Numbered from the stretch's first letter, positions 1 through 35,515 are shown. The stretch is 64,000 nucleotides of DNA from Deltaproteobacteria bacterium (GCA_015233135.1 JADFYH010000003.1:43021-107020), one strand, 5' to 3'. Notes: generated from the letters alone by a model not told the origin. Made by a program: numbers and translations.

Positions 1-80
1 AAACTCCCAAGCCAAAAGTGAAAAAAAATAAGAAAGTGAAAGCAAAAAGTATTGATTAATGAGTCAATGAATTGAAAAAA

Positions 81-107
81 GGCGTCCAAGTTTTGGGCGC
101 CTTTTTT
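81..107 (+). terminator. Putative intrinsic terminator: 9-bp stem (one G-T wobble), 3-nt loop, T6 run, preceded by an A-run (could act in both directions).
   Basis: ggcgtccaa-gtt-ttgggcgcc followed by tttttt. It lies just upstream of the likely true batB-like start at 114 and probably terminates an upstream gene outside the window. Confidence 0.45.
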
Positions 108-113
108 GTTTTT

Positions 114-2003: not shown

Positions 2004-2010
2004 TATTTTC

Positions 2011-3852: not shown

Positions 3853-3856
3853 ATTT

Positions 3857-4603: not shown

Positions 4604-5145
4604 GACCTCAATTAAAACAAATCCTCCTTCAGAATTCTTATGAACAACGCGAAGTAAAACTTGCTTCGGGACGGCTTTCTAATTTTTATTTTGATGGAAA
4701 ACAAACTGCCCTTTCTGCAGAAGGTGCTTTTTTGATTGGAGAATGTTTTTTTGATCTCTTTCAAAAATCAGGTCGTCGGATTCAGGCCGTGGGGGGTCCT
4801 ACTTTAGGGGCGGATCCTATTGTGAGTGCGGTGAGTTTGATTTCTTATCTAAAAAATTCCCCGCTGCCCGCTTTTATTATTCGTAAAGAACCCAAGAAAC
4901 ACGGTACTGCAAAATGGATAGAAGGGGACAAAAATTTAAAGCTAGGGATGCAAGTGGCTTTAGTGGAAGACGTGGTGACCTCAGGTGGATCCATATTGAA
5001 AGCCGCTGAAAGAGTGGAAGAAGCCGGATATTTTGTGAGTTTAATGGCTACGATTGTCGATCGTGAAGAAGGAGGACGGGAGGCGATTGAAGCAAAAGGC
5101 TATCGCTTGTTGTCTTTGTTTACGAAGACGGAATTGCTTTCATAA
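4600..5145 (+). CDS. pyrE: Orotate phosphoribosyltransferase
   Basis: ORF 4549..5145. Start taken at the ATG at 4600, overlapping the batE stop as ATGA. PRPP-binding motif VALVEDVVTSGGS and typical PyrE length and sequence. Confidence 0.85.
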   Translation: MRPQLKQILLQNSYEQREVKLASGRLSNFYFDGKQTALSAEGAFLIGECFFDLFQKSGRRIQAVGGPTLGADPIVSAVSLISYLKNSPLPAFIIRKEPKKHGTAKWIEGDKNLKLGMQVALVEDVVTSGGSILKAAERVEEAGYFVSLMATIVDREEGGREAIEAKGYRLLSLFTKTELLS

Positions 5146-5149
5146 TTTT

Positions 5150-5707
5150 ATGATTAAAAAAATAATCCTCATCCTCCTCCTTATTTGTTCAAGCCATATC
5201 CTTTTTGCAAAGGAACTCTCTTACGAAAAAGCTCTCAAAAAATATCATCGTGTGGGGGAACAATACAGCCCCGAAAACTTCCATGCCCTTTATCGCTGGG
5301 AAGTTTTGTGGATGAGCCCCGAGTTGCGCGAGGCCCAGGATAAATATCTGGCGCAGCATTATAAAGATTCAGCGGCCGATCTTAAGGCTCGTGAGACAAA
5401 GTCTGAAAAAATCGAACATCAATACACCGAGTTCCTCGTCTTTTTTTACACCTACAATAAAAAATGGAACGATCTGGATGCTCCCGAAAGCCTTTGGCAG
5501 CTGCGTCTTGAGGCAGCGGAGTCTCATTTAAAACCCAGCGAAATTATCAAAGTAAAACCCACTCCTCTCGAAGAAAGCCTTTATCCCTATCTGGCACCTT
5601 GGGTAAAAATGTATCGGGTTCGGTTTCCTGTGTCTGATTCAAGCAGCGAATTGAAGTTGAGCCTTTATGGGATTAAGGGGGAAAAAGAATTAGTCTGGAA
5701 GAATTGA
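5150..5707 (+). CDS. Hypothetical secreted protein with an N-terminal signal peptide.
   Basis: ORF 5054..5707. Start taken at the ATG at 5150 (MIKKIILILLLICSSHILFA). No recognisable family. The 3' end overlaps the convergent nadB by about 18 nt. Confidence 0.45.
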   Translation: MIKKIILILLLICSSHILFAKELSYEKALKKYHRVGEQYSPENFHALYRWEVLWMSPELREAQDKYLAQHYKDSAADLKARETKSEKIEHQYTEFLVFFYTYNKKWNDLDAPESLWQLRLEAAESHLKPSEIIKVKPTPLEESLYPYLAPWVKMYRVRFPVSDSSSELKLSLYGIKGEKELVWKN

Positions 5708-9030: not shown

Positions 9031-9192
9031 ATTTTCATCTAACCCCAAAGTTATTGTCTTTTTTTTGCTGATAATTTGAGTAATTTTCTTTCCCTGAAAG
9101 ACAATTCCTTGAATTATCAGTTTTCTGAGAAAGACGCTTTGGGGTATTTTTTCACTTGGATCAATCCTGATCCTACTAAAGGAGTCTCTCTC

Positions 9193-11319
9193 ATGTTTAA
9201 TATTCAAAGTGTTTCTGCTCAACTCGGAAATAAAACCATCCACATTGAAACCGGAAAACTTGCCAAGCAGGCAGGGGGCTCAGTGACGGTTCGTTGTGGA
9301 GATACCATTGTTCTAGTCACCGCTGTGGTGGCCACAAAAGCCCGTGTGGGAATCGATTTTTTCCCTCTCACTGTCGATTATGTTGAAAAAACCTATGCTG
9401 CTGGAAAAATCCCCGGCGGATTTTTTAAGCGTGAAGGTCGGCCTACCGAAAAAGAAGTCCTTACTTCCCGTTTTATCGATAGACCCATTCGGCCTCTGTT
9501 TCCAGATCATTTCCAAAATGATGTTCAAGTGACGGCCCTCGTTTTATCGGCCGATCCGGAAAATGATCCTGATGTTTTGGCCATGGTGGGTGCCTCTGCA
9601 GCTCTCATGCTGACGGGAGCTCCTTTTCAGGGGCCTATTGCCGGATGTCGCATTGGCCGCATTAATGGCGATTGGGTTTTAAATCCCAGCGCTGCGCAAC
9701 TCGAAAAGTCTGAGCTTGAAATGATTGTAGCGGCTACGAAAGATGCCATTGTGATGGTGGAAGGTGGCGGAGATGAAGTGAGCGAAGAAGTGATGATCGA
9801 GGCTATCCTGAAAGCCCATCAAGCCATGCAGCCTTTGCTGCAAGTTCAAGTGGAACTGGCTTCCAGAGCCGCAAAAGCCAAGATGGAAGTGGTGCTTCCC
9901 GAAGTAAATCAGCCTTTAATTGATCAAGTCAAACAACTTGCCGAACAAAAACTGGCTGTGGCGATTCGTATTCCTGAAAAACAAAAACGCTATCAATCGA
10001 TGGATGAAGTAAAAGCTGAAACGATCAAAGCCATTGTCACCGAAGGGGCTGAAGACGAAGAGACCAAAAAAGCCGAAGTAAAGGCTGTTTTTGAAGACTT
10101 AAAACGTACTCTGGTTCGAGAAATGATTTTAAAAGATAATCTTCGAGTAGATGGGAGAAATCTTCAACAGATTCGTCCCATTATCTGTGAGGCCGGCCTG
10201 CTTCCCCGTGCCCATGGATCCGCCTTGTTTACCCGAGGTGAAACTCAAGCAATTGTGGCCACTACCTTGGGAACCGAAGACGATCTGCAAATTATTGATA
10301 CCTTGATGTTTAATGGGCATAAAAACTTCATGCTGCATTATAATTTTCCTCCTTTTTCAGTGGGTGAGGTGAGAAATATGCGTTCGCCCGGACGACGCGA
10401 AATTGGCCATGGTGCCCTGGCAGAACGCGCGATTCGAAAGGTGATGCCAAAAGGAGACTTTCCTTATACAATTCGTATTGTTGCAGAGATTTTAGAATCC
10501 AATGGTTCCAGCTCAATGGCTACGGTTTGCGGCGCGTCTCTTTCTTTGATGGATGCGGGAATTCAAATCAAGGCCCCGGTGGCCGGCATTGCGATGGGAC
10601 TAATTCAAGAAGAAGGCAAGACCGCTATTTTGTCCGATATCTTGGGAGACGAAGACCATTTGGGAGATATGGATTTTAAAGTGGCAGGGACTACCCAGGG
10701 AATTACTGCCATTCAGATGGATATCAAAATTCAGGGCCTCACCCATGACTTGTTGAAACAAGCCTTGGAACAGGCGCGGGTAGGGCGTTTGCATATTTTA
10801 AGTAAAATGGATGAGGCCTTAACGACCCATCGAAAAGAGCTTTCCCCTTATGCCCCCCGTGTGGAAACCCTAAAAATTCCCAAAGACAGAATTCGAGAAG
10901 TAATTGGCACGGGTGGAAAGGTCATCCGATGGATTATTGAAGAAACCGGCGCAAAAATTGATGTGAATGATGAGGGCTTAATCAATATCTATTCCAGCGA
11001 TGGTGAGGCCTTGGCCAAGGCCAAACAAATCATTCAATTCATCGTGGCCGATCCTGAAGAAGGAAAGACCTACCTGGGGCGCGTGCAAAAAATCATGGAT
11101 TTTGGCGCCTTTGTCGAAATCCTTCCGGGGACCGATGGATTGGTGCATATTTCTCAACTCGCAGATCGCCGTGTAGAACGCGTGACCGATATTTTAAAAG
11201 AGGGCGATGAAGTGGTGGTGAAATGTATTGGGATTGATCGGGATGGGAAAATTAAGCTTTCGCTGAAAGAAGCGGTGGGATTGGTAGCAGATATTGTTCC
11301 TATTCGGATGCCAAGGTAG
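9193..11319 (+). CDS. pnp: Polynucleotide phosphorylase (two RNase PH domains, KH and S1).
   Basis: ORF 9076..11319. Start taken at the ATG at 9193, preceded by aaaggag. MFNIQSV...[11 protein letters not shown] is the typical PNPase N-terminus. C-terminal KH (GKVIRWI) and S1 domains. Confidence 0.95.
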
Positions 11320-12860: not shown

Positions 12861-14069
12861 TCACTTTTCACTCCTCTTCAATTCTTCCTCAATCAACAGA
12901 TTGATTTTGATGGGATTCAGCCAATCCTCGAGCTTCCTTCCATTTACAAATACCCCCGGGGTACCATTCACCTGAGCTTGGTTTCCCATTTCGATGTCCT
13001 TTTTAACTGTATCCAAATGTTCATTCGATTTCAGGCATTGATTGAACTTATTTTCATCCAAGCCTAGTCCTTTGGCGAATTCTGGGAATCGTTCGGAACT
13101 CAAGCGGGTTTGTTCTTCGAAAATCTTGTCATGCATTTCCCAGAATTTGTTTTGGTCTTGGGCGCAATAAGCCGCCATGGCGGCAGTGCAGGCATTTTGA
13201 TGCAGATCGCGCTGCATGTATGGGTTGCAGCTTTTATCGAGGGGATAGCTCATGTAGATGAACTGAATTTTTTTCAGATACTGCCTCAAGTAAGGTTTAA
13301 GTGTGGCAGCAGCCCTTTTACAATGAGGGCATTCGAAATCACTGAATTCCACAATCTTAATAGGGGCATCCGGATTTCCCCAGGAGGCGTGGTTTTGGAT
13401 ATCGAAAGTGTACTGAGGTTCAATGTAGTGAAAATCCAGGAAGGCCTGGTGATCAAAGTCTTCCAAATCCTCTGTATATTTTTTTTCATTGGCATAGAGT
13501 GCTGCCAAGGTGATGAGAAAGAAAATGAGTAAGAAGGCCAAATGTCCGAAAAAAGAAGAGCGCAAAGTTTCTCTTTGTTTCGTGTTACCGATTTGAAAAA
13601 AATCTTTCAAAAAATTAAGGCGTGTGGGTTGTTTTGGAAAGAAAAGATGGATGAAAATAAAAAACAAAAAAGTTATAAAGTACAGTGAAACACAAAAGAG
13701 GCAGTAACTTTTTATGATATAAGAAGAGACTAATCCCAGATAAATTGAAAAACCCAGGGCAGGGTAAGTCCCCAGTAAGGGGAAGGTAAGCGTCGCTGCA
13801 CTTTCTTCGCGATTGATAAAGGCATAAGCCATAGCGAGGAGGGCATAGATATAAAAAAGAAGGCCAAGGCCGCTTACTGGGAAAGGGCCCAGCTTGGAAT
13901 AAGTGCTGATGATGACGCTATCGCAATCAAATTTGCCGTTGATATTGCAAATACTTTTATGTTCAAACCCTTCCTTTAAGATATCAAAATGTCGTACGGT
14001 CAGGTACCCGGATACCGCAAGGCCGGCAAGGATGAGGATGAGCAGGATTAAAAGATGTTTTGTTTTCAT
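12861..14069 (-). CDS. Vitamin K epoxide reductase (VKOR)-like membrane domain fused to a DsbA-like thioredoxin domain.
   Basis: Loop cysteines CNINGKFDC and an in-membrane CLFC (CxxC) are typical of VKOR. The C-terminal thioredoxin fold carries FECPHC. The ORF extends to 14108; I chose the ATG at 14069 (MKTKHLLILL). Confidence 0.7.
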   Translation of the reverse strand: MKTKHLLILLILILAGLAVSGYLTVRHFDILKEGFEHKSICNINGKFDCDSVIISTYSKLGPFPVSGLGLLFYIYALLAMAYAFINREESAATLTFPLLGTYPALGFSIYLGLVSSYIIKSYCLFCVSLYFITFLFFIFIHLFFPKQPTRLNFLKDFFQIGNTKQRETLRSSFFGHLAFLLIFFLITLAALYANEKKYTEDLEDFDHQAFLDFHYIEPQYTFDIQNHASWGNPDAPIKIVEFSDFECPHCKRAAATLKPYLRQYLKKIQFIYMSYPLDKSCNPYMQRDLHQNACTAAMAAYCAQDQNKFWEMHDKIFEEQTRLSSERFPEFAKGLGLDENKFNQCLKSNEHLDTVKKDIEMGNQAQVNGTPGVFVNGRKLEDWLNPIKINLLIEEELKRSEK

Positions 14070-14146
14070 AGTGAAAAAAACGCTACACAAGTGATTTGGA
14101 AGAGACAAGTTTTTTTGTGAAATGAAAAGATGAAAAAAGGAGAATT

Positions 14147-15263: not shown

Positions 15264-15755
15264 AAAAGTGGGACTTGTTTAAATTTTAAAAGTGGACTGA
15301 AAACGAATTCCCCTCTCCCCTTGGGGGAGAGGGTAGGGTGAGGGGTAAAAATGAGTACTTTGATTGACCTTTCAAAATCTCTCAGGAAAAACTCAACTCA
15401 TACAGAAAATGATCTTTGGTATTATTTAAGATCAAGGCGATTAAATGGATTGAAATTTAGAAGACAGCATCCTCTTGGTCTATACATTGTAGATTTTATA
15501 TGTCTTGAGAAGCGCATTGTTATTGAATTGGACGGTGGGCAACATGCTGCAGCTCAAAGTGAAGGTAAGAAACGAGATGAATGGTTGAAAGCAGAAGGAT
15601 ACCAAGTATTACATTTTTGGAACTCTGAATTTTATGAAAATCGTGAAGGGGTGTTGAGTCAAATTTTAGCAGCAAGTGAATGAACCCCTCACCCTGCCCT
15701 CTCCCCCAGGGGGAGAGGGGATTATTAAAAGTCCACTTTTAAATTTAGGTAACAC
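15264..15755 (+). mobile_element. Compact cassette: a DUF559 endonuclease gene between inverted terminal repeats. The inner TIRs are GC-rich palindrome units of about 36 nt; the outer TIRs are AT-rich aaaagtggact segments.
   Basis: Left unit, 15310..15345, is cccctctccccttgggggagagggtagggtgagggg. Right unit, 15685..15720, is cccctcaccctgccctctcccccagggggagagggg, a near-perfect reverse complement. The outer segment taaattttaaaagtggact (15280..15298) is the reverse complement of aaaagtccacttttaaattta (15727..15747). Confidence 0.6.
15351..15683 (+). CDS. DUF559 domain protein (Vsr / PD-(D/E)xK-like endonuclease fold).
   Basis: Characteristic LWYYLRSRRLNGLKFRRQHPLGLYIVDFICLEKRIVIELDGGQH...VLHFWNSE. 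A degenerate second copy lies at 36883..37080. Confidence 0.8.
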   Translation: MSTLIDLSKSLRKNSTHTENDLWYYLRSRRLNGLKFRRQHPLGLYIVDFICLEKRIVIELDGGQHAAAQSEGKKRDEWLKAEGYQVLHFWNSEFYENREGVLSQILAASE

Positions 15756-15771: not shown

Positions 15772-16674
15772 TTAATTAAAATCCCCAGGCACCGGAGCTT
15801 CAATTCTTACCTCTTTGCCATCCGCCATCTGAAAAGAAAGCCTGTGGGCATGCAAAAGTATTCGGGTCGATTGCAATGGGCTTCCATACAAATCATCTCC
15901 CAAAATGGGATGTCCTTTTGACGCAAGATGGACGCGGATTTGGTGGGTGCGGCCTGTGAGAGGTCTGGCCTCAATCAAGGTCACTTTTTCGTTTGCTTCT
16001 AGAACTTTAAACTCCGTTTTACTCCAGCGGGAATTTTTTTGTTCCTTTTCATAAAGGCGATAAACATTGAGGGGCAATTTTCGAAAATCGCGCTGAAGGT
16101 ACCCTTCTACAATCCATTCTTTTTCTGCCGCTGCGGGGGAGACGAGGGCCAGGTAAGATTTTTTGATCTTCTGATCATGAAATTGTTTCATGAAATAAGC
16201 TTCGGTTTTTTTATCATAGGCGAATAAAACGATTCCGCTGGTTTGCCTATCCAAACGATGCAGGGCATTTAAATTTTTCAAGCCCGTGAAGTCACGAACT
16301 TGTTCCTGCAGGCCAAAACGAGTACTGGCGCGGCTTCCCTGTACGGGTAACCAGGCGGGTTTGTTCACGGCCAAAAGGCCATTCTCTTTCAATAAAATAT
16401 GCTGTGAAGAAATAGGAATGGCTTCTGGTTCTCTTGAAAAAAGATAAAGTTCGATTTCGGAGTTTGCTTTAAATGGATGTTTGAGATCTTGTTCATTCAG
16501 TCTTTTTTTGTTGAGATAACATCCTCCATGAAAAAGTGCTTTTTGAATATTTTCTGTAGCAAGATTGAGTTGCTGGGAGAGATAAGGCAGCAAGTTGCGA
16601 CCTGAAATTGTTTTTTCAAGGGTGAAGGAATAATACTTAACTGGTGGGTTGTAGCGGTAGGCGTCCGTTGTCAT
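15772..16674 (-). CDS. RluA-family pseudouridine synthase
   Basis: Catalytic motif HRLDRQTSGIVLFA and an S4-like N-terminus. ORF runs to 16713; the likely start is the ATG at 16674 (MTTDAYRY), overlapping the ABC-F stop as ATGA. Confidence 0.8.
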   Translation of the reverse strand: MTTDAYRYNPPVKYYSFTLEKTISGRNLLPYLSQQLNLATENIQKALFHGGCYLNKKRLNEQDLKHPFKANSEIELYLFSREPEAIPISSQHILLKENGLLAVNKPAWLPVQGSRASTRFGLQEQVRDFTGLKNLNALHRLDRQTSGIVLFAYDKKTEAYFMKQFHDQKIKKSYLALVSPAAAEKEWIVEGYLQRDFRKLPLNVYRLYEKEQKNSRWSKTEFKVLEANEKVTLIEARPLTGRTHQIRVHLASKGHPILGDDLYGSPLQSTRILLHAHRLSFQMADGKEVRIEAPVPGDFN

Positions 16675-18185
16675 TTTTGTCTTTTCTTCTTTCCACCCTC
16701 TTCCTCTTCCCAACCTATTTTTTCTAAAAACTCATCGTAGTTACCCAAGAAAAGTTCGGCTCCTCCTTCACGAAAGACAATCAGTTTGGTGGCGATGGCT
16801 CGCAAAATCATTTCGCTGTGAGTGACAATCATCATGGCGCCTTTGAAATTGCTAATGCTGTCTACCAGGGCATCAATCGATTGCATGTCCAAATGGTTGG
16901 TGGGTTCGTCCAGAAAGAGCAAATTGGCAGGAGCCGCCAGAATTTTTCCCAACAAAACGCGACTGCGTTCGCCTCCGGAAAGCACGCCAATACGCTTTTC
17001 AGCGGCATCGCCTTCAAACATCATCACCCCGCAAATGCCTCGCACTTGAGTGCGACTGAGGCTGGAGTTGACGGAACCAATTTCATCTTCCACGGTTGTT
17101 TTAAGATCGAGGCGATTGATATTGGTTTGTCCAAAATAGCCCAGTTTCATTTCGGGATGCGAATAGAGGCTGCCCCCCGTTGCTTGAAATTCACCAGCCA
17201 GCACATTCAGCAAAGTCGATTTCCCTTTTCCATTTTTCCCGATGATGGCAATGCGATCGTCACTTTTTATAGAAAAACTTAAATTCTGGATGAGCGGAGT
17301 TTTTGCTTCGTAGTGAAAAGATAAATCGTTCACCTCCATCACTGTTTTAGCGGCAAAGGGGGCGTAATGAAAATCGAAATCGAGGCTTTCGATATTTTGC
17401 AGGGCATCTTTGCTGCCCATTTTTTCTAATTGTCGAATACGCGATTGAACGGAAGCGGCTTTGGAGGCCTGGGCGCGAAAGCGGTTGATGAAGGTTTCGA
17501 TTTCTTTTCGTTTTTTGCCCTCGTTGACCCGATTTTTTTCGTAGAGTTCTTCGTCTTGCTCAATTTGGGTATAAAGTTTTTCGGTGGGGCCAGTGACTCT
17601 TTTTAATTTTTGTCGGTGAATGGCGGCCGTGTGTGTGGTGACGCTGTCCATAAATTCACGGTCATGCGAAATGAGGATGAGCTCATCTTTCCAGTTTCTC
17701 AAAAAGCGGGTGATCCAGCGCACGGAGACAATATCCAAATAGTTCGTGGGTTCGTCCAAAAGCAGAAGATTGGGTTCGGAGACCAACAGCTTCGCCAGAT
17801 TGAGACGAATTTGATAGCCACCCGAAAACTCATAAGGGCTGCGATCCATGTCTTCTTGGGTGAAGCCCAGCCCAAACAAAATTGCCTCTACTTTGTAGTA
17901 ACAATCTTCTTCTCCAACCGGCAATCCCAGTGCCCCTTCTAGCAACACCGTGGGTTGGGTAAAATTCAGATGCTGGGCAAGATGGCCTACACGGTAATTG
18001 CGGGGAAAGGTGATGCTGCCTTCATCCGGCAATTCTTCTTTCAAAACAAGTCTGAATAACGTGGATTTTCCGTGGCCATTTCGACCCACCAAACCCAGTC
18101 TTTCTCCGCGACTGAGTTGAAGGTCGAGATCTTCAAAAAGAATTTGGGAGCCGTAAGTCTTTGTCAGTTTGTTGATTTGCAGCAT
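16671..18185 (-). CDS. ABC-F family ATPase: two ABC cassettes, no TM domain.
   Basis: Two Walker A motifs (GRNGHGKST, GKNGKGKST) and two signature motifs (LSGGYQIRL, LSGGERSRV). Inter-domain linker present. 504 aa. Confidence 0.9.
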   Translation of the reverse strand: MLQINKLTKTYGSQILFEDLDLQLSRGERLGLVGRNGHGKSTLFRLVLKEELPDEGSITFPRNYRVGHLAQHLNFTQPTVLLEGALGLPVGEEDCYYKVEAILFGLGFTQEDMDRSPYEFSGGYQIRLNLAKLLVSEPNLLLLDEPTNYLDIVSVRWITRFLRNWKDELILISHDREFMDSVTTHTAAIHRQKLKRVTGPTEKLYTQIEQDEELYEKNRVNEGKKRKEIETFINRFRAQASKAASVQSRIRQLEKMGSKDALQNIESLDFDFHYAPFAAKTVMEVNDLSFHYEAKTPLIQNLSFSIKSDDRIAIIGKNGKGKSTLLNVLAGEFQATGGSLYSHPEMKLGYFGQTNINRLDLKTTVEDEIGSVNSSLSRTQVRGICGVMMFEGDAAEKRIGVLSGGERSRVLLGKILAAPANLLFLDEPTNHLDMQSIDALVDSISNFKGAMMIVTHSEMILRAIATKLIVFREGGAELFLGNYDEFLEKIGWEEEEGGKKKRQK

Positions 18186-18373
18186 GTGAAACTCTTGTCC
18201 GTAAAATGTATAAGGCGAAACGTGAAATGCGGCTGCCCTATATACGCCGCTAAGCTTGATGGCAATAGCGAAAACAGGGTGGAAGGAGTTATTTAATTTT
18301 TTGCTTTGCTCTCAAAAGCGTGAAGGGTATAAGCGTGCGTCGAACTTACTCAAAAAAAGAGAGCGGACTTCCC

Positions 18374-21300
18374 ATGAATTCAAACTCCAGCATCCTTCTT
18401 GGCACTCTTCGTCCCGATTTATTAAAAGACGAAACCTTGGCCGAACTTTTTCGTGCCTCCGCCAAGACGCATCTTTCTAAGACAGCACTGATCTGCAGAG
18501 ACCAGGCTCTCAGCTATGCAGAGTTAGATCGCTGGAGCGATGCCGTGGCTGCCTCTCTTGCCAGCCAGGGCATTGGCCGAGGAGCTAGTGTAGGCGTTTG
18601 GTGGCCTCGGGGTTTAGAATTGCATGTCATTATTTTGGCTATAGTTAAATCGGGAGCGGCGTATGTGCCTCTTGATTTTGAAATGCCGGCTGAGCGGGTA
18701 GTGACGGTATTATCCGAAGTAAAGGCTGCGGCGTGTTTTAGTCCAAAAACTCTGGAGCTTAACTGTCCCACGTTGTCTGTTCCTCCTTTAATGGGCCCAG
18801 AAAATACTAAAATCCCCCTTCATCCCCCTTTTTCAAAGGGGGAGATTGGTCCTCAGTTCCAAGATTGGGCCTATGTCTTATACACCTCGGGGAGCACGGG
18901 AAAGCCCAAAGGAATCCCCATTACGCACAGTCAAATTTGTCATCTGGTTCGAGCAGAACAAAGCGTATTGGGGCTTCGAAGTGAAGACAAAGTGTATCAG
19001 GGTTTTTCGGTTTCTTTTGACATGTGGTGTGAAGAAACCTGGATCAGCTATCTAGTAGGTGCCACACTTTTTGTGGCCGATGCAGAGATGGCAAAGTCTA
19101 TTGATGAGTTGAGTGAGGTCTTGAGCAACAACAACATCACGGTGCTGCATGCCGTGCCCAGCTTACTGGCGGTGATCGACGAGCATATTCCTTCTTTGCG
19201 CTTGGTGAATGCAGGAGGCGAGGCCTGCACTGCTTCGGTACTTGCGCGTTGGGGCAAGCCTCCTCTCCAATTTTTTAATACCTATGGCCCCACCGAAACC
19301 ACAGTCACTGCAACAATTGCGGCCCTCAAAAGTGGAGAGGCCATCACCATCGGCCAACCTTTACCCAATTATGATTTGGCAATCGTCGATGAAGCGTTAA
19401 ATCCGCTCCCTTATGGCCAACGCGGAGAATTGGTCATTTCTGGCCCGGGAGTAGGACAGGGTTATATTAATCTCGTGGATTTGACGCGAGAAAAATTCGT
19501 AAAAAAACCGGCGTTGTTGGCAGCGATGCGGGGGGAAGTGATTTATCGCAGTGGGGATGCGGCGCTGATGGATGCCGAACAGAATATTTATATTCAAGGC
19601 CGTTTTGACGATCAAATCAAACTCAGAGGCTATCGCATTGAGCTGGGGGAAATCGAAGTGCGATTGAATCAGCTCCCTGGCATCTCGGCCGCTGCCGTGG
19701 CTGTTAAAAAAGACAAACAGGGTAACGATCACCTGGTGGCTTATTTAAGGAGTGAAAATCAGAAAAAAATTGAAGAAACTGAACTGCGTAACTTGCTGGC
19801 AAAGGAGTTGCCGGTCTACATGCTGCCTAGCCTTTTGGTGCAACTGAATGATTTGCCGCGCCTGGCCAGTGGAAAGATAGATCGCAAAGTTCTTCCGACC
19901 CCGGAGGCGCTGCTGCACCTTTCCGAAGAGACACAAGTGCCCCTGGATAAAAATGCCCCTTTGCGAGAGCGCGTCGTGGCGGTGTTGCAGAAGGTTTTTC
20001 CAAATCGAAGTTTGGATTTAAGCCAGGATTTTTTTGACGACTTGGGTGGGCATTCGCTTTTAGCCGCGGGATTTGTTTCCCGGATGAGAAATGAAGCGGG
20101 AGTGGAGCAAGCCTCTATTCGAGATGTCTATTTAAATCGTCCTTTGGCAGCCCTTGTCGAAAAATGGGAGACCAAGACCGAAACAAAGTCTGCGGTTCAA
20201 GACTTTCAAAAAGTGCCTGCCTGGCGCTATCTCCTGTGTGGCTTGGGGCAATCCGTTGCCTTACTTTTTATTTTTGCCTTGTTCGCGGTGCAAATTTTTC
20301 TGCCTTATCTCGCATACTATTATGTGCTGCAAGAATCTTCGAGTCATCTGTGGAGCATTGTCACTGCCCTTTTTTCCTTTTGTTTTATCCCTCCTTTTTT
20401 TTCATCGCTTACCATTGTCAGCAAATGGTTGGTGCTTGGGCGTGTGCGGGCAGGGGATTATCCGCTTTGGGGGGGGTACTATTTTCGTTGGTGGTTTGTG
20501 AAGACCATGCAGCGCTTGACGCCTATTGAATACATCAATGGCACTCCACTTTATGCGATCTATTTGCGACTACTGGGGGTTAAAATTGCTTCGGATGCGC
20601 AACTCAGTGCCTTCACCATTGCGGCAGAAGATTTGGTGACGATAGGAAAAGACGTCAGCATCAGCTCGGGCGCGGTCATGAACAATGCCGTGGTAGAAGG
20701 AGGGCTTTTAAAATTACGGGCCATCCATATTGCCGACCACGCTTATATAGGCACCAGCGCGGTGATTGCGGGAGGCTGTCGCATCGAAGAATGGGGGGAG
20801 CTGAAAGATCTGAGTTTTCTTCGTCCCAACACGGTGCTCAAAACCCGCGAAGTTTGGGGCGGGAGCCCTGCCATTCATCAGACCACAAAATCTCCAGAAG
20901 AATTGCCTCAGCCTTTGGAGGTTTCCCCGGCCACCCTCAAAAAATATAGCAAGGTGTACTTGCTCTTACTTTTGATTTTTCCTTTCACTATTCTGCTTCC
21001 TTTACTGCCCAGTATTATTGCCTTGAATGCCCTGGATAACTACGCAGCCGATTATGATTTTTCCTATTTGGTTCTTACTCCCTTGCTCAGTTTGAGCTAC
21101 ATCCTTCTCTTTGCCCTGGAGGCGATTTTTTTCACCCGCCTGCTACAGCATGGTCTGCAACCCGGTACTTATCCTGTCTATAGCAGAACCTATTTGAAAA
21201 AATGGTTTTCCGATCAAATCATGACCTTGTCTTTGTTTGTGCTGCATCCTGCTTATGCCACGGTCTTTGTGTCGACTTTGTATCGTGCCCTAGGGGCAAA

Positions 21301-22336
21301 AATTGGAAAGAATGCCGAAATTTCTACCGCCAGTCAGGTGACGCATCGTTTGTTAGAAATTGGAAATGGGGCCTTTGTGGCCGATGTCGTGGTGCTGGGT
21401 GAAGATGATGTGCGGGGGCAGCGTTTAACCTTGAGTAGAACTTCCATCGGGAATAACAGCTTTGTGGGCAACAGCGCCCTCATTCCCCAAGGTTATCATC
21501 TGCCCGACAACATGCTGGTGGGCGTGCTCTCGGTGCCTCCCACTCCAGAACAGCTGCAATCTTCAGATGCCAAGAACTGGTTTGGATCTCCCGCCATTCC
21601 TCTCCCCCGAAGACAAGAGAGTAAAGTTTTTCCCCCTGAACTCACGACCCATCCCACAAAAAAACGCCGCCTTGCACGAGGCCTGGTGGAGCTGATCCGC
21701 ATTCTCATTCCCTCCAGCGCGGTGATGAGTTTCAGCGTACTCTTTATTGCGTATGGGCATGACTTGTTGGTGGGGGATAGCTGGTGGCGATTGATCTATC
21801 AGTTTCCTCTCTATTATCTTTTTTTCGTGGGAATTCCCTCACTGCTGGTGACTGTTATTTTAAAATGGTTGTTGATTGGAAAACATCGTCCCGCTCAAGT
21901 TCCCTTATGGAGTTGGAAAGTGTGGTGCAGCGAAGCCATTACCTCTACCTACGAAGCCTTAACCGTTCCTTTTTTGCTGGAATATTTGCAGGGGACCCCC
22001 TGGCTACCATTGGTACTGCGTTTGTTTGGTGTTCGAACGGGAAAACGCGTCTGGCTCAATACCACCGATATCACCGAATTTGATGTGGTAAACATTGGCG
22101 ATGATGCAGCCCTCAACGACGAAAGCGGCCCTCAAACTCATTTGTTTGAAGATCGGGTAATGAAAATCGGCCCCGTAAAAATAGGAGCCCGCAGCAGCAT
22201 TGGCGCCCGGTCGGTAGTCTTGTACGATAGCTATGTAGGAGAAGATAGCAATCTGGAAGCCCTTTCGCTGGTGATGAAAGGAGAGAATCTCCCAGCGCAT
22301 TCGAATTGGGGGGGGAGTCCGGTGAGGCAGGGGTGA
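18374..22336 (+). CDS. NRPS-like protein: adenylation domain, thiolation (PCP) domain, polytopic membrane region, and two C-terminal left-handed beta-helix (hexapeptide-repeat) domains. This is the architecture of the so-called NRPS terminal domain of unknown function.
   Basis: A-domain core motifs LYTSGSTGKPKG, NTYGPTETT, YRSGD, GRFDDQIKLRGYRIELGEIE and LPRLASGKIDRK. PCP motif DLGGHSLLA. Hydrophobic stretches after residue 640. Repeated hexapeptide-like I/V-G blocks in two C-terminal copies. ORF starts at 18320; the ATG at 18374 is an alternative start. Confidence 0.85.
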   Translation: MNSNSSILLGTLRPDLLKDETLAELFRASAKTHLSKTALICRDQALSYAELDRWSDAVAASLASQGIGRGASVGVWWPRGLELHVIILAIVKSGAAYVPLDFEMPAERVVTVLSEVKAAACFSPKTLELNCPTLSVPPLMGPENTKIPLHPPFSKGEIGPQFQDWAYVLYTSGSTGKPKGIPITHSQICHLVRAEQSVLGLRSEDKVYQGFSVSFDMWCEETWISYLVGATLFVADAEMAKSIDELSEVLSNNNITVLHAVPSLLAVIDEHIPSLRLVNAGGEACTASVLARWGKPPLQFFNTYGPTETTVTATIAALKSGEAITIGQPLPNYDLAIVDEALNPLPYGQRGELVISGPGVGQGYINLVDLTREKFVKKPALLAAMRGEVIYRSGDAALMDAEQNIYIQGRFDDQIKLRGYRIELGEIEVRLNQLPGISAAAVAVKKDKQGNDHLVAYLRSENQKKIEETELRNLLAKELPVYMLPSLLVQLNDLPRLASGKIDRKVLPTPEALLHLSEETQVPLDKNAPLRERVVAVLQKVFPNRSLDLSQDFFDDLGGHSLLAAGFVSRMRNEAGVEQASIRDVYLNRPLAALVEKWETKTETKSAVQDFQKVPAWRYLLCGLGQSVALLFIFALFAVQIFLPYLAYYYVLQESSSHLWSIVTALFSFCFIPPFFSSLTIVSKWLVLGRVRAGDYPLWGGYYFRWWFVKTMQRLTPIEYINGTPLYAIYLRLLGVKIASDAQLSAFTIAAEDLVTIGKDVSISSGAVMNNAVVEGGLLKLRAIHIADHAYIGTSAVIAGGCRIEEWGELKDLSFLRPNTVLKTREVWGGSPAIHQTTKSPEELPQPLEVSPATLKKYSKVYLLLLLIFPFTILLPLLPSIIALNALDNYAADYDFSYLVLTPLLSLSYILLFALEAIFFTRLLQHGLQPGTYPVYSRTYLKKWFSDQIMTLSLFVLHPAYATVFVSTLYRALGAKIGKNAEISTASQVTHRLLEIGNGAFVADVVVLGEDDVRGQRLTLSRTSIGNNSFVGNSALIPQGYHLPDNMLVGVLSVPPTPEQLQSSDAKNWFGSPAIPLPRRQESKVFPPELTTHPTKKRRLARGLVELIRILIPSSAVMSFSVLFIAYGHDLLVGDSWWRLIYQFPLYYLFFVGIPSLLVTVILKWLLIGKHRPAQVPLWSWKVWCSEAITSTYEALTVPFLLEYLQGTPWLPLVLRLFGVRTGKRVWLNTTDITEFDVVNIGDDAALNDESGPQTHLFEDRVMKIGPVKIGARSSIGARSVVLYDSYVGEDSNLEALSLVMKGENLPAHSNWGGSPVRQG

Positions 22337-22353
22337 ACAATCCTAATTTTTTT

Positions 22354-22953
22354 TCAAGTTAATGAACACAAGACGGGGAACAAGCTTTTTACCTGTTTTT
22401 GCGTTGCCTTCAAATCTCCCGAATTTTCAATAATCCAATTGGATACTTTAGCTTTTTTTTCATCCAAAGTTTGGGCCGTAAGACGTTTTTCTATTTCTTC
22501 ATCCGAAAGTTGATCTCGTAATTTGGCTCTTTGTTTCTGAAGTTCAGGCTTCGCACGCACTAGAATCAAGCCCTCAAACTGTTTATAGTAAGCGGCTTCC
22601 ACCATCAGAGCAGCTTCTACAATTACTAAAGGGATACTCTGTTTTTTTGCTTTTTCAATTTGCTCGGCAATTTGTTTTCGAACGGCGGGATGAATAAGCG
22701 CTTCCAACCAGACCCGCTTATCCCGATTTTGAAAGACAAGACCTCCCAATTTTTTTCTATCAATTTCTTGTTTGGAATTTAGAATCGAGGTTCCAAAATG
22801 GGAGACTACTTTTTTTTTGAGTTCCAGGTCTGTTTCGTAAATCGTATGCACGACCCGATCGGCATCAATAATTTGGGCCCCTAAGGCCTCAAACATCTTA
22901 GCGACCGTGGATTTTCCAGAAGCCATTCCACCAGTCAGCGCAATCACTTTCAT
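22354..22953 (-). CDS. coaE: Dephospho-CoA kinase
   Basis: P-loop GGMASGKST and the CoaE fold pattern. 199 aa. Confidence 0.9.
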   Translation of the reverse strand: MKVIALTGGMASGKSTVAKMFEALGAQIIDADRVVHTIYETDLELKKKVVSHFGTSILNSKQEIDRKKLGGLVFQNRDKRVWLEALIHPAVRKQIAEQIEKAKKQSIPLVIVEAALMVEAAYYKQFEGLILVRAKPELQKQRAKLRDQLSDEEIEKRLTAQTLDEKKAKVSNWIIENSGDLKATQKQVKSLFPVLCSLT

Positions 22954-23477: not shown

Positions 23478-24719
23478 TCAGCCTCCCTTCCAGGGACGCT
23501 GACCAGTTACCTCCCTTAAGTATTTGCGTAAAATTTCAGTTTTATTTTTATGAGGATCTCTTAACACTAGCTGAAGCAGACCCTGCAAAATTGTACCAAG
23601 TTTGGGGCCAGGCTCAAAGCCTAATTTTAAGAGATCTCTTCCTTGAAGAGCGAGATCCTTTATTTCTAAAGGAGGGGCTTCATCCAGAATATCTAAAATC
23701 TTATTTTGAAGGGAGAGTTCTTCGTCAAAAGAAAATTTTAAGTTCAGCCAGGGCTTGATTAAGGGTCTCCCTAAATGATGAATAAAAAGACGGATGTCGT
23801 AATTGCTGCTTTCATCCGTGATTTGCTGAGGCCAGAGTTTCAGTAGTTTTAAAAATGATTTGTGATTGATGCCGATGAGGCTGAGTGGATATTTGCTGAG
23901 CCAGGTCCTTGCAGCCTCCAAGTCCGATTGATCTTTGGAGAAAATGAAGAGGATTGCAAAAAGCGAATAGAAATTTTTTTCAAGAATATCGAGTCTTTTT
24001 ATAAGCCGTGGCCAACTCGCAATAAAAGGGGAGGTGAGAAGGTGCGGAAACAGATAAGGCAACAGGCCTGTTTTTAAAAACAACTCGAAGCCCAGCCCAG
24101 GCCGCTTACTTAAAAAAAGTTTTTTCAGTTCTTCTACAATCCGTTCGGCGGAAATGGTTTCGAGTAATGGGGCATTTTTAATAATGGATTGAAAAGTTTT
24201 TTCTTCGATGTGCAAAGAAAAACGTGTGGCAAATTGCACAGCTCTCAGCATTCGAAGGGGATCTTCAACAAAAGATTGCTCAAATACCTGGCGTAAAATT
24301 TTATTTTCTAAATCTTTTTTCCCTTCAAAAGGGTCGAGTATTTCTCCCGTTTGGAGATTTTTTGCCATGGCGTTGAGCGTGAAATCGCGGCGTTTGAGGT
24401 CTTCTTCAATGGCCAGGTCAGGATCTTGTGTGACTTCAAAATCACGATGGCCAAGGCCTGTAGAGCGTTCGGTGCGAGGAAGGGCAATGTCGTAATTCTT
24501 TTGATCTTGCTTGCATTTAAATTTGAGTACCCCAAAAGATCTGCCTACCAACTCGACATGGCCGAATTTTTTGAGCAGGTTTATCAGCTTGGGAAGAGGA
24601 AGTTTTCGAACCAGCAGATCTTGATCTTTGATTTCGATATTTAAAAACCGATCACGGAGAGAACCGCCCACTTCGTAGACTTCTCCTCCCTGTTCAAAGA
24701 TCGCATCGATAAATTTCAT
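23478..24719 (-). CDS. tRNA nucleotidyltransferase / poly(A) polymerase family protein (CCA-adding enzyme or PcnB-like).
   Basis: Pol-beta-like nucleotidyltransferase motifs GGSLRDRFLN...DQDL, RSFGVLKF and RRDFTLNAMA. 413 aa. Confidence 0.8.
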   Translation of the reverse strand: MKFIDAIFEQGGEVYEVGGSLRDRFLNIEIKDQDLLVRKLPLPKLINLLKKFGHVELVGRSFGVLKFKCKQDQKNYDIALPRTERSTGLGHRDFEVTQDPDLAIEEDLKRRDFTLNAMAKNLQTGEILDPFEGKKDLENKILRQVFEQSFVEDPLRMLRAVQFATRFSLHIEEKTFQSIIKNAPLLETISAERIVEELKKLFLSKRPGLGFELFLKTGLLPYLFPHLLTSPFIASWPRLIKRLDILEKNFYSLFAILFIFSKDQSDLEAARTWLSKYPLSLIGINHKSFLKLLKLWPQQITDESSNYDIRLFIHHLGRPLIKPWLNLKFSFDEELSLQNKILDILDEAPPLEIKDLALQGRDLLKLGFEPGPKLGTILQGLLQLVLRDPHKNKTEILRKYLREVTGQRPWKGG

Positions 24720-27995: not shown

Positions 27996-28100
27996 ATTTC
28001 CCCTCTCCCCTTGAGGGAGAGGGTTAGGGTGAGGGGTATTTCTAGTGCACTCAGGATCACCCTCTCTCTGACTCTCTCCCCTCAAGGGAGAGAGGACTTT
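27996..28100. repeat. Two adjacent GC-rich palindromic repeat units between mreC and mreD.
   Basis: 28000..28035 is cccctctccccttgagggagagggttagggtgagggg. A degenerate unit at 28061..28097 reads ...tctcccctcaagggagagagg. Both fall within the 5' extension of ORF 28011, which is therefore probably not coding there. Confidence 0.7.
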
Positions 28101-28184
28101 TCAGAGTGGCTTCTTACTAAAATCTGCGGAACTCAAGTTTATGTGTTACAGCCAATACATGGAATACGTGAATGTATAGGATAT

Positions 28185-28745
28185 ATGAAAAACCCCTTCC
28201 TCCTCTTTCTCTTCTGGCTTTTTCTTTTCTTTGCTGAACAGCAAAGCACTGCCCGCCTTCTTTTTTTCCCGGGTGTTTCTTTTGTTGTCTTCACTTATGC
28301 CTTGCTCAATTTGGAGCGTGAAAAGATACTTGGGTTGGCGATTTTTATTTTTTTTATTCGTGCAGTCTTTTGCTCTTCTAATTTTTTGGTGTTCATAGAA
28401 TTTTTCACCTTAGTCGTTTTACGCCTCTTTCTTTCATTTTCCCAAGGTGGAAAAATTTTTATGGAAGCGGTTTTTAGTTCTCTTGCTGTTTTTTTATCGA
28501 AGTTGCTTTTTTTATTTCTTTCACCCGAATATCAAATCACGGTGGAACAGTTCCGCTTGGGCGCTTATTTGAACTTGTTTTTTTCCAGTCTTTTGTTTTT
28601 ATGGATAATCCACGAACCTGCTGCCTTGTTTGAAGAACGTTATTTTTCCTTGGGGTCTAGAAAAGGCCAACTCTATCTTCTTAAAGCGCGCAAATTGCGT
28701 AAGCACAGACTTAGACGGCGTTTTGGTCTGAAAAATGATTGGTGA
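28185..28745 (+). CDS. mreD: Rod shape-determining protein MreD (polytopic membrane protein).
   Basis: ORF 28011..28745. The part upstream of the ATG at 28185 is repeat-derived, and the remainder is highly hydrophobic. Position between mreC and mrdA supports the call. Confidence 0.6.
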   Translation: MKNPFLLFLFWLFLFFAEQQSTARLLFFPGVSFVVFTYALLNLEREKILGLAIFIFFIRAVFCSSNFLVFIEFFTLVVLRLFLSFSQGGKIFMEAVFSSLAVFLSKLLFLFLSPEYQITVEQFRLGAYLNLFFSSLLFLWIIHEPAALFEERYFSLGSRKGQLYLLKARKLRKHRLRRRFGLKNDW

Positions 28746-33126: not shown

Positions 33127-34010
33127 CGACACGAGCTTCCGCCTTGGCTTTGTTCCAAGCCAATCTGGTAAAAGGTTTGTTGGAACAGAAACATCCCGGT
33201 TTAAAAGTGGAAATCCTTCCCCTGAAAACTTCCGGCGATCTTATCTTAGATCGGCCTTTGCGGGAGGTGGGGGGCAAGGCCTTATTTGTCAAAGAAATTG
33301 AAGAGGCCTTGCTGCAGAAGAAAGCGGATTTTGCGGTGCACAGTATGAAAGACGTTCCGGCGCTGCTTCCTCAGGGATTGAAACTGGGGGTAATTTTAGA
33401 AAGGGAAGATGCGAGCGATGTCCTAATTTGTAGAAATGAAGGCAAGTTAGAGAATCTTCCTCCGGCAGCAAAAGTGGGCAGCAGCTCGCTACGCCGAAAA
33501 ATTCAATTGCTTCGCCTTCGTCCCGATTTGAAAGTAGTAGATCTTCGTGGAAACATTGATACGCGCCTGCGCAAGTTGAAGGAAGGCGCTTTGGATGCCA
33601 TCTTGTTGGCTGCCGCAGGGCTAAAGCGTTTGGGCCTTTTTCAAACTCATTTCCAAAGACTAGATTTTATTGCCTCACCCGGTCAAGGGGCCATAGGTCT
33701 GGAATATCGGGAATGTGACCGCGAATTACAAAATATTCTGCAAGTCTTAGATCATCCTCAAACCCATGTTTGTGTAGAAGCAGAGCGCCTTTTGATGAGG
33801 CATTTTGAGGCCTCGTGTGAATTGCCTTTGGGTGCGCATGCTTTTTTAAAAGGCAATGGCTTGTCACTAAAAGCCTTTGTCTCAAACCAGGATGGAAGTC
33901 GTTATCTGGAAGCAGAAAAAGAAGGTGAGCTTGTTCAAGCTCTGCTGATGGCCCAAGCGTTGGTTGATGAATTAAAAGCACAAGGGGCAGAGGAGTTTTT
34001 TAAAGTATGA
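33105..34010 (+). CDS. hemC: Porphobilinogen deaminase (hydroxymethylbilane synthase)
   Basis: Motifs IILATRASALALFQAN, ILPLKTSGD, GGKALFVKE and AVHSMKDVP. Overlaps the 3' end of the PNP gene by about 22 nt. Confidence 0.9.
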   Translation: MRDSIILATRASALALFQANLVKGLLEQKHPGLKVEILPLKTSGDLILDRPLREVGGKALFVKEIEEALLQKKADFAVHSMKDVPALLPQGLKLGVILEREDASDVLICRNEGKLENLPPAAKVGSSSLRRKIQLLRLRPDLKVVDLRGNIDTRLRKLKEGALDAILLAAAGLKRLGLFQTHFQRLDFIASPGQGAIGLEYRECDRELQNILQVLDHPQTHVCVEAERLLMRHFEASCELPLGAHAFLKGNGLSLKAFVSNQDGSRYLEAEKEGELVQALLMAQALVDELKAQGAEEFFKV

Positions 34011-35515
34011 GTCGTAAAGGAAAAATCTACCTCGTCGGCGCTGGGCCGGGAGATAAGGGTTTGCTGACTCTAAAAGGGGCTCAGGTTCTTTCTAAAGCCG
34101 ATCTTGTTTTCTACGATAATCTCGTGAATCCAGAAATTTTAGAATATGCCCCTCCACATGCAAATTGCGTGTATGTGGGCAAGCGCGGTTTGGGTGACAA
34201 GACTTCCCAAACTCATATCGAAGACCAACTGGTTCAAGCAGTTCAGGAAGGTAAATGCGTCATCCGTTTAAAAGGAGGAGACCCTTTTTTGTTTGGCCGT
34301 GGGGGAGAAGAAGCAGAGCGCTTAGCTCAAGAAAATATTCCTTTTGAAATTGTCCCCGGAGTTTCTTCACTTATTGCAGCCCCAGCGTATGCAGGGATTC
34401 CGCTGACTCATCGGGATTGGAGTTCTACCCTTGCTTTTGTCACAGGCTACACCCAGGAGAATAGTCCTTATCCCATCGATTGGCCCGCCTTGGCTAAAAT
34501 GCAAACTATAGTTTTGGTGATGGGAGTGAAGACTCTCCAAGGGAATTGTGCCCGATTATTACAGGGCGGTATGCGTGGATCCACCCCCGTTGCGATCATT
34601 CGTTGGGGAACGACCCCTAGACAAAAAACTTATATTTCTACTTTAGAAAAAGTTGCTGATGAAATGCAGCAAATAAAATTGATGCCTCCCGTGGTGATGG
34701 TGATTGGAGAAGTGGTTAAGCTTCGTTCCAAACTTTGTTGGTATGAAAAACTTCCCTTGTTTGGAAAAAAAATTTTGGTGACTCGGGCTGCCTCTCAAAT
34801 ATCGGAGTTGTCTGATGGCTTATCTGCCTTGGGAGCAGAGGTGTATAAAGTCCCAAGTCTTGAGTTTAGTGCACCGGATTCTTGGGAGGATCTGGATCAA
34901 GTCAGTCAAAATCTGTCCCAATTTGAATGGTTAGTGTTTAGCAGTGCGCAGGGTGTCGAATTTTTCATGAAGCATTTTTTGAGTCTTCATCCAGACATTC
35001 GACTTTTTCCAAAAATAAAAATCGCCTGTGTAGGACCTAAAACAGCTTTGGCCTTGGAAAAATTTTATTTGAAGGCCGATAGGGTAGCTCAAAACAGCTC
35101 TGCTGCTGGTCTGGCTCAGGAGATGATTCTGGGGAAGATGATCCACGGAAAAGTGCTTTTTGTGCGTGCTCAAGAGGGACGAGAGGAATTTGTGGAGAGA
35201 CTTTTGCAAGAAAATATTTTTCTCACAATGGTTTTTGCCTATAAAACCCAAGCCTGTTCAGAAGGAGTCCAGAAACTTCAACAAGGTTTGGACTTTGGAA
35301 AATTGGATTTGTTACTCTTTGCGTCTGCCTCTGCCATCAAGAATTTATTTGCCCTTTTGAACGAAGCACAGAAAAATATGCTGCTGAAACGGCCCTGTCT
35401 TTGTATCGGCCCTACCACTGCTCAGACCGCCAAGGATTTTGGCTTTCTCTCTGTGGTTCAAAGTGAGATTCCCAGCGTTGAAAGCCTTATTGAAAAAGCC
35501 ATAGGATGTTTTTGA
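34007..35515 (+). CDS. Bifunctional uroporphyrinogen-III C-methyltransferase (N-terminal, CobA/SUMT) and uroporphyrinogen-III synthase (C-terminal, HemD).
   Basis: The N-terminal domain carries KIYLVGAGPGDKGLLTLKGAQVL and VIRLKGGDPFLFGRG. The C-terminal half has HemD-like repeats. ATGA overlap with hemC. Confidence 0.85.
   Translation: MSRKGKIYLVGAGPGDKGLLTLKGAQVLSKADLVFYDNLVNPEILEYAPPHANCVYVGKRGLGDKTSQTHIEDQLVQAVQEGKCVIRLKGGDPFLFGRGGEEAERLAQENIPFEIVPGVSSLIAAPAYAGIPLTHRDWSSTLAFVTGYTQENSPYPIDWPALAKMQTIVLVMGVKTLQGNCARLLQGGMRGSTPVAIIRWGTTPRQKTYISTLEKVADEMQQIKLMPPVVMVIGEVVKLRSKLCWYEKLPLFGKKILVTRAASQISELSDGLSALGAEVYKVPSLEFSAPDSWEDLDQVSQNLSQFEWLVFSSAQGVEFFMKHFLSLHPDIRLFPKIKIACVGPKTALALEKFYLKADRVAQNSSAAGLAQEMILGKMIHGKVLFVRAQEGREEFVERLLQENIFLTMVFAYKTQACSEGVQKLQQGLDFGKLDLLLFASASAIKNLFALLNEAQKNMLLKRPCLCIGPTTAQTAKDFGFLSVVQSEIPSVESLIEKAIGCF

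Follow-up and report, generated by a model that had tools for sequence, protein, structure and literature searches.

This study concerns a 64,000-nucleotide stretch of DNA, hereafter the window, from a metagenome-assembled genome (MAG) labelled Deltaproteobacteria bacterium (GCA_015233135.1 JADFYH010000003.1:43021-107020), and one gene within it that encodes a large synthetase. The gene is a complete open reading frame (ORF) of 1320 amino acids (aa) whose product almost certainly belongs to the Pls/PosA family of non-ribosomal peptide synthetases (NRPSs); its sequence points to a cationic, delta-linked L-ornithine homopolymer as the most likely product, such that we describe it here as a predicted poly-ornithine synthetase. 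Sequence comparison revealed the protein to be identical to GenBank entry MBF0491472.1, which is encoded on a 110,848-bp contig and whose only annotation is 'MAG: amino acid adenylation domain-containing protein [Deltaproteobacteria bacterium]'. An alternative in-frame GTG lies upstream at 18320 and was rejected as the true start; the ATG at 18374 was kept, since that is where the alignments to the homologues and to the GenBank record begin, and both agree on 1320 aa. The GC content of the gene is 49.4%, against 44.3% for the rest of the window, and the mutL gene of the same window is equally GC-rich, so that base composition was rejected as a signal of horizontal transfer. Positions of the gene, the parts of its product and the genes around it are collected in Table 1.

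Table 1. The predicted synthetase gene, the domains of its product and the adjacent genes, in coordinates of the window.
Feature	Position	Strand	Description and evidence
ABC-F gene	16671-18185	-	Pfam scan; divergent, 188-bp spacer to synthetase gene
Intergenic region	18186-18373	.	188 bp between divergent ABC-F and synthetase genes
Synthetase gene	18374-22336	+	Complete ORF, ATG to stop, 1320 aa; predicted Pls/PosA-family homopoly(amino acid) synthetase
Adenylation domain	18431-19903	+	aa ~20-510; Pfam AMP-binding, AMP-binding_C; TIGR01733
Thiolation (carrier) domain	19967-20146	+	aa 532-591; Pfam PP-binding
Phosphopantetheine-attachment Ser561	20054-20056	+	In motif DLGGHSLLA
Transmembrane helix pair 1 (TM1/TM2)	20219-20437	+	aa ~616-688; hydropathy, model helices H16-55 and H58-88
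Polymerisation domain	20249-22324	+	aa 626-1317; TIGR02353 match
Left-handed beta-helix domain 1 (C1)	20612-20887	+	aa ~747-838; weak Pfam LbH_EIF2B and GMPPB_C matches, model beta-coil, Foldseek
Transmembrane helix pair 2 (TM3/TM4)	20927-21148	+	aa ~852-925; hydropathy, model, Lys/Arg pattern
Left-handed beta-helix domain 2 (C2)	21353-21583	+	aa ~994-1070; internal repeat alignment A1, model
Transmembrane helix pair 3 (TM5/TM6)	21659-21883	+	aa ~1096-1170; hydropathy, model, Lys/Arg pattern
Left-handed beta-helix domain 3 (C3)	22088-22312	+	aa ~1239-1313; best Hexapep stretch aa 1268-1296, model, repeat alignment
CoaE gene	22354-22953	-	Pfam scan; convergent, 17 bp past synthetase stop
CCA/poly(A) polymerase-family enzyme	23478-24719	-	Pfam scan

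The N-terminal part of the protein is a single module of an adenylation (A) and a thiolation (T) domain, which bears out the original prediction, made by a model from the sequence alone, of a stand-alone A-T protein of NRPS type. Pfam searches matched AMP-binding (aa 26-364, E 2e-69), AMP-binding_C (aa 426-501) and PP-binding, the A domain scored 363 bits against TIGR01733 (cutoff 317), and the carrier motif DLGGHSLLA is present. Its Ser561 is kept in 120 of 120 close homologues (the best 120, taken as clusters at 90% identity, each at least 61% identical to our query) and in 91 distant representatives. As had also been predicted, the protein lacks a condensation (C) domain: neither the Condensation nor the Thioesterase families were matched at E <= 0.01, and all other Pfam matches in the protein are of left-handed beta-helix (LbH) type only.

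The C-terminal part is the polymerisation domain that defines the family, with 645.4 bits against the TIGR02353 model (cutoff 423.1) and positions 3-695 of its 695 covered. The original prediction had named this model correctly and had called the family behind it poorly characterised and of unknown function, a description that echoes the earlier name of TIGR02353 ('NRPS terminal domain of unknown function') and is now outdated. The current name is 'Pls/PosA family non-ribosomal peptide synthetase', and biochemical work on its members has demonstrated isopeptide-linked homopolymers of the diamino acids lysine, beta-lysine, diaminobutyric acid (DAB), diaminopropionic acid (DAP) and ornithine, the DAB polymers being of both L- and D-DAB (PMC10522769; PMC9205021). 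Because this family is characterised, the function can no longer be called open, and the gene adds one more ordinary member to an enzyme family already known, and is not an unknown.

Hydropathy analysis of this C-terminal part revealed six strongly hydrophobic helices arranged as three pairs, which it placed at about aa 618-688, 857-925 and 1104-1170, and the region is built of three repeats, each consisting of a transmembrane (TM) helix pair, a helical linker and an LbH domain. When the region was cut into three and aligned, the repeat units proved mutually 25-30% identical, each ending in W-x-G-S-P. The original prediction, in which two tandem LbH domains came after a hydrophobic region, was thus right about the presence of membrane helices and LbH domains and wrong about their number and order, as three LbH domains alternate with three TM pairs where a single membrane region had been expected. 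The hexapeptide nature of the repeats was upheld by Pfam Hexapep at 41.4 bits (cutoff 27), with further LbH-type matches being weaker. An AlphaFold2 model of aa 601-1320 (48 homologues; mean pLDDT 86, pTM 0.87) repeated one pattern three times, namely two long helices, a short strand, linker helices and a run of short strands of beta-helix type. Foldseek comparison of this model with the PDB gave, among the 50 best matches listed, almost exclusively LbH-fold proteins, including serine acetyltransferase, maltose/galactoside O-acetyltransferases, gamma-carbonic anhydrases, LpxD and GlmU.

The distribution of charges around the helices further suggests how the protein sits in the membrane. Each TM pair is bordered by segments with 3-5 Lys or Arg residues, whereas the short loops within the pairs hold 0-1 together with 1-3 Asp or Glu, and the loop connecting the helices of pair 1 is short and without Lys or Arg between flanks that are rich in them. 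Because of these Lys/Arg-rich flanks, the positive-inside rule would place the A, T and LbH parts in the cytoplasm, which is the likely orientation. Candidate catalytic residues, all invariant among the 120 closest homologues, are five histidines (789, 958, 991, 1129 and 1256) together with several acidic positions, D888, E1259 and D1260 among them.

To reach a substrate, which the original prediction had left open and had proposed to approach through the specificity code, the A domain was aligned with HMMER to the PosA structure 8G95, an alignment that is ungapped through the binding-pocket region. The code reads DMEHNGTVTK (D216, M217, E220, H259, N279, G281, T303, V311, T312 and K501), with the first nine residues mapping to PosA Asp217, Met218, Glu221, His260, Asn280, Gly282, Thr304, Val312 and Ser313 and K501 taking the tenth position. 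Nine of the ten residues are identical to the PosA code DMEHNGTVSK, and the single change, from Ser to Thr, retains the hydroxyl. This places the code, at the level of prediction, in the ornithine group of Patel & Gulick, whose Supplementary Table 2 lists DMEHNG[ST]V[ST]K as ornithine, including the enzyme of Chitinophaga vietnamensis that is 65% identical to our query (PMC10522769).

What these residues do in PosA gives the code its meaning. D216 and E220 fall in an ungapped block on Asp217 and Glu221, which gives the code Asp at position 1 and Glu at position 3, residues that bind the alpha-amine and the side-chain amine of the diamino acid and that are essential in PosA, where Thr304 and Ser313 in turn hydrogen-bond the delta-amine (PMC10522769). 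T303 corresponds to this Thr304, and T312 stands in place of Ser313, a Thr variant seen in 96 of the 120 close homologues. At position 2, M217 matches Met218, which sets the permitted side-chain length and is replaced by Ala in the lysine enzymes; PosA prefers L-ornithine over L-lysine more than 160-fold, and the M218A exchange raises its efficiency with lysine about 10-fold (PMC10522769).

Wider comparisons agree with the code. The best solved-structure match to the A domain is PosA (8G95/8G97; E 1e-107, 363 bits), ahead of the Pls A domain (7WEW; E 1e-64, 221 bits), and the pattern DMEHNG[ST]V[ST]K occurs in all 120 closest homologues, with the exact query code in nine including the query itself. 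A search with the polymerisation domain only, against 1.84 billion cluster representatives (50% clusters), returned 614 clusters at E <= 1e-30, and the codes of 91 full-length proteins among the 150 best matches listed were then ordered by similarity (a ranking, not a tree). Nine of the first 12 carried DMEHNGT[VI][ST]K or the near-variant DMENNGTVTK, the lysine-type code DAESIGTV[VI]K appeared first at rank 11 and formed the majority from rank 16, and DAP/DAB-like and beta-lysine-type codes stood lower, with Ser and Thr at code position 9 intermixed across the DMEHNG clade. Because the polymerisation domain alone also ranks ornithine-type codes first, the two domains agree on the ornithine type, and by these measures of similarity the query appears closer to PosA than to the lysine-, DAB-, DAP- and beta-lysine-type members in both.

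Among the characterised systems, PosA of Acinetobacter baumannii (ATY43264.1; A-domain structures 8G95-8G98), whose product is delta-poly-L-ornithine (PMC10522769; PMC9205021), is the nearest counterpart. It shares with the query the order of A domain, T domain and a membrane part of six TM helices and three LbH repeats, and it too is a single-gene unit without pathway neighbours. The published PosA model has six bent membrane helices beneath three five-turn LbH domains in approximate three-fold symmetry, the three beta-helices packing like the subunits of trimeric LbH acyltransferases (PMC10522769, Patel & Gulick 2023), and the anatomy found here agrees with it. The two differ in code position 9 (Ser in PosA, Thr in the query), in an identity of 44% over the A core and in their hosts, a gammaproteobacterium for PosA and an uncultured 'Deltaproteobacteria' MAG for the query, which is known from sequence alone. 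The founding family member, Pls of Streptomyces albulus (BAG68864.1; A-domain structure 7WEW), makes epsilon-poly-L-lysine (PMC10522769; PMC9205021) and polymerises iteratively with a freely diffusible acceptor (PMC9205021); it shares the domain order, the length of about 1320 aa and the lack of C and thioesterase domains, but its code DAESIGTVVK has an Ala at position 2 that admits lysine, whereas position 2 of the query is Met, position 4 His and position 5 Asn.

Over the full length, the query is 60-65% identical to predicted ornithine-type synthetases from Bacteroidota, a different phylum, such as those of Chitinophaga vietnamensis (WP_201747873.1; code DMEHNGSVSK) and Pedobacter caeni (WP_073234317.1; code DMEHNGSVTK), both of which are assigned ornithine in Supplementary Table 2 of PMC10522769. 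Another family member, the synthetase of Bdellovibrionales bacterium CHPA (OFZ39577.1), comes from a lineage formerly classed as deltaproteobacterial, and its code is not shared by the query. Beyond the family, the three soluble repeats have the fold of the trimeric LbH acyltransferases (serine acetyltransferase, maltose/galactoside O-acetyltransferase, LpxA/LpxD and GlmU). The query differs from these in having its three beta-helices fused in one chain with TM hairpins between them, in an identity of only 10-27% and in the acyl donor, proposed here to be a carrier-protein thioester and in those enzymes acyl-CoA or acyl-ACP.

By analogy with Pls and PosA, a mechanism can be proposed. The cytoplasmic A domain would adenylate L-ornithine, with Asp216 holding the alpha-amine, Glu220 the delta-amine and Met217 limiting side-chain length, and the activated ornithine would pass to the phosphopantetheine arm on Ser561 of the T domain as a thioester. 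In the C-terminal domain, this thioester would then be attacked by the delta-amine of either a free ornithine or a growing chain that is held non-covalently, forming an isopeptide bond, and the cycle would repeat without a template or defined end point and with the chain never covalently attached. The resulting polycation would leave the cell, presumably through or beside the membrane part, and, by homology to the family, it might serve an antimicrobial (antifungal) role. PosA itself polymerises in vitro with only ATP and ornithine (PMC10522769).

Other products and functions have to be weighed against this assignment. That the enzyme is a Pls orthologue polymerising L-lysine to epsilon-poly-L-lysine would suit the shared architecture and TIGR02353 domain, the clear homology to the Pls A domain and the weak activity of PosA itself on lysine (PMC10522769), yet we consider it very unlikely: the query has Met at the position where all lysine-type enzymes have Ala and has His and Asn rather than Ser and Ile at positions 4 and 5, its A domain scores 363 bits to PosA as opposed to 221 to Pls, and representatives with a lysine-type code are more distant in the polymerisation domain too. 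LbH domains are typically acyltransferases with acceptors of sugar, lipid or amino type, the synthetase is embedded in the membrane, DltA models are among the matches to its A domain and no polymer has been shown in vivo for any Gram-negative member, all of which would fit the transfer of a single carrier-bound amino acid to an envelope or membrane lipid or glycan, as in a DltA/DltC-like system fused to an LbH acyltransferase. We hold this aminoacyl transferase to be highly improbable, as every TIGR02353 protein studied biochemically makes a homopolymer, PosA doing so from ATP and ornithine alone, and the polymerisation domain is full length in the query and above the equivalog-domain cutoff. 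There is hardly any likelihood that the protein is an ordinary NRPS initiation module whose condensation partner is encoded elsewhere; its A-T domains are indeed similar to their counterparts in multimodular NRPSs (LgrA, E 1e-142, whole protein), but neither the protein nor the scanned ORFs of the window hold a Condensation domain, the flanking genes are opposite-strand housekeeping genes, and the 700-aa C-terminal domain is the one that defines the polymerising family.

A family member making a different, undescribed polymer, whether of D-ornithine or another cationic amino acid or with a different chain length or linkage, is an unlikely alternative that draws on the modest A-core identity to PosA, on the Ser-to-Thr difference at position 9 that matters in PosA, on the poor separation of D- from L-ornithine by PosA (PMC10522769) and on the many family codes without an assigned specificity. 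The pocket argues otherwise: the query shares four of the PosA substrate contacts D, M, E, T and S and has a conservative change at the fifth, Ser and Thr variants are mixed throughout the DMEHNG clade, and DMEHNGSVTK of Pedobacter, which has Thr at this position, was classed as ornithine by Patel & Gulick (PMC10522769). A related view takes in the whole DMEHNG..TK clade, that is the query and most Bacteroidota members. Because this clade has Thr for Ser at the delta-amine contact and the query has diverged from PosA by 56%, there is a small chance that its substrate, stereochemistry, chain length or cellular role differs from that of PosA; a D-ornithine or mixed polymer would be one such case, to which we likewise give little weight, and a polycation that the query's uncultured lineage keeps at the cell envelope and does not secrete as an antifungal would be another, also doubtful.

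Several points tell against the assignment to delta-poly-L-ornithine itself. PosA is the sole assayed ornithine enzyme, with the A-core identity given above, and the query is assigned from its sequence; the ornithine label of all members outside Acinetobacter is a prediction by the authors of PMC10522769. Exchange of Ser313 for Ala costs PosA 183-fold (PMC10522769), and the query has Thr at this position. Because PosA prefers L- over D-ornithine only about 2-fold (PMC10522769), the code does not fix stereochemistry. The PosA polymer has been seen only in vitro, as 7-12-mers (PMC10522769). As every Foldseek target covers only a fraction of the query (best query-normalised TM-score 0.18), the PDB holds no structure of a whole polymerisation domain, nor was an experimental one found in the literature. 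Finally, the scanned ORFs of the 64-kb window yielded no phosphopantetheinyl transferase, a result that is uninformative for the whole genome. With these points counted, a delta-linked L-ornithine homopolymer is still the product we consider probable.

The surroundings of the gene are consistent with an enzyme that acts alone. As the original prediction had noted, no pathway context is encoded nearby, and Pfam scans identified the neighbours as the ABC-F, CoaE and CCA/poly(A) polymerase-family genes, with a gene for a TPR protein listed between the latter two. Because both adjacent genes lie on the opposite strand, the synthetase gene is not co-transcribed with a neighbour, and because, in addition, no neighbour is conserved across 83 related loci, it is a single-gene unit. 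None of ten window neighbours recurs beside the homologues in these 83 loci, where only two weak ABC-ATPase matches appeared, and clustering of the flanking ORFs of the homologue loci gave lineage-restricted families only, with no neighbour family extending beyond one bacterial family. The absence of a pathway around the gene is usual rather than puzzling, and posA of A. baumannii, too, is reported to form an operon by itself (PMC10522769). Housekeeping genes make up the rest of the window, namely those for polynucleotide phosphorylase (PNPase), dUTPase, fumarase, PheA, MreBC, penicillin-binding protein 2 (PBP2), heme synthesis, EF-P, TatAC, PBP1, MutL and MiaA. Scanning of about 57 ORFs across the window gave no protein with a condensation (PF00668) or thioesterase domain, so the adjacent C-domain protein that might have pointed to an ordinary NRPS module is not there; for the genome beyond, a 64-kb sample is uninformative on these families.

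From ORF geometry, the intergenic region upstream presumably holds the synthetase promoter. No sigma-70-like site was found in it, a promoter and terminator scan of 18100-22500 being at or below the expectation from shuffled sequence, and no Rfam element (E <= 1), and thus no riboswitch or leader, was found in 17900-22700. Some homologues do have regulatory genes alongside. The closest, at 73% identity and on a groundwater-metagenome contig, lies directly 3' of genes for a hybrid histidine kinase and a response regulator, on the same strand and ending 12 bp before the synthetase gene (L001/L002, 6771-9989), and a homologue at 68% identity has a same-strand OmpR-type regulator and kinase upstream with an opposite-strand Bax1-I gene between (L004, 2279-4965). 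These upstream two-component genes may reflect regulated expression of the synthetase in those loci; no two-component system lies beside the synthetase in the window. In 24 loci, a same-strand gene for a GNAT acetyltransferase of about 170 aa follows the synthetase on its 3' side, usually within a few tens of bases (L006, 9945-10463 on the + strand; also Chitinophaga, Flavipsychrobacter in L033 and Segetibacter in L070). This Chitinophagaceae-type enzyme could be a tailoring or self-resistance enzyme for a polyamine polymer, and the 64-kb window holds no homologue of it.

The host appears to be a deep, uncultured 'Deltaproteobacteria' lineage, because the PNPase of the window is only about 60% identical to its nearest named relatives (Geobacter and Oryzomonas; the homologue P0140 reaches 65%). 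Because the synthetases of Chitinophaga, Mucilaginibacter and Pedobacter are, at 60-65% identity, as close to the query as this PNPase is to its nearest named relatives, the comparison suggests that the synthetase gene has spread horizontally, a matter that base composition does not settle. The PNPase ORF itself (9076-11319, + strand) gives 747 aa when read from a TTG; because the GenBank product has 708 aa, translation probably begins some 39 codons further downstream.

Several further features of the window deserve mention. A 2204-aa ORF (41083-47697, +) has Pfam matches only to a flavin amine-oxidase/DAO domain (aa ~1382-1619) and a C-terminal HATPase_c domain (aa 2051-2157), an unusual pairing, with the first ~1380 aa lacking any family match. 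ORFs without a Pfam match at E <= 0.001 encode 914 aa (56945-59689, +), 474 aa (39544-40968, +), 244 aa (28011-28745, +) and 217 aa (5054-5707, +), and the 244-aa ORF, flanked by mreC and the PBP2 gene, stands at the expected position of mreD. A VKOR membrane domain is fused to a DsbA/thioredoxin domain at 12861-14108 (-), a disulfide system of the DsbB-replacing kind; a Bat-like cluster occupies 72-4603 (+) with a VWA-TPR protein, BatD and a TPR-SH3 protein; and a small DUF559 ORF with a Vsr-like endonuclease fold stands alone between pheA and a pseudouridine synthase gene (15351-15683, +). Directly 3' of hemC lies a fusion of uroporphyrinogen-III methyltransferase (TP_methylase) and HemD synthase (34007-35515, +).

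Taken for what it adds, this analysis gives the under-annotated entry MBF0491472.1 a corrected reading and extends the hosts of predicted ornithine-polymer synthetases to a deep-branching, uncultured 'Deltaproteobacteria' lineage. Its practical value is modest, and the questions that remain, namely the catalytic residues, the export route and the role in vivo, belong to the family as a whole and are not specific to this locus. The DMEHNG-code clade is very large, with at least 120 clusters (at 90% identity) that are at least 61% identical to the query, and one enzyme of the clade has been assayed. If the assignment holds true, cationic isopeptide polymers would be common among soil and groundwater bacteria as a trait conferred by a single gene.

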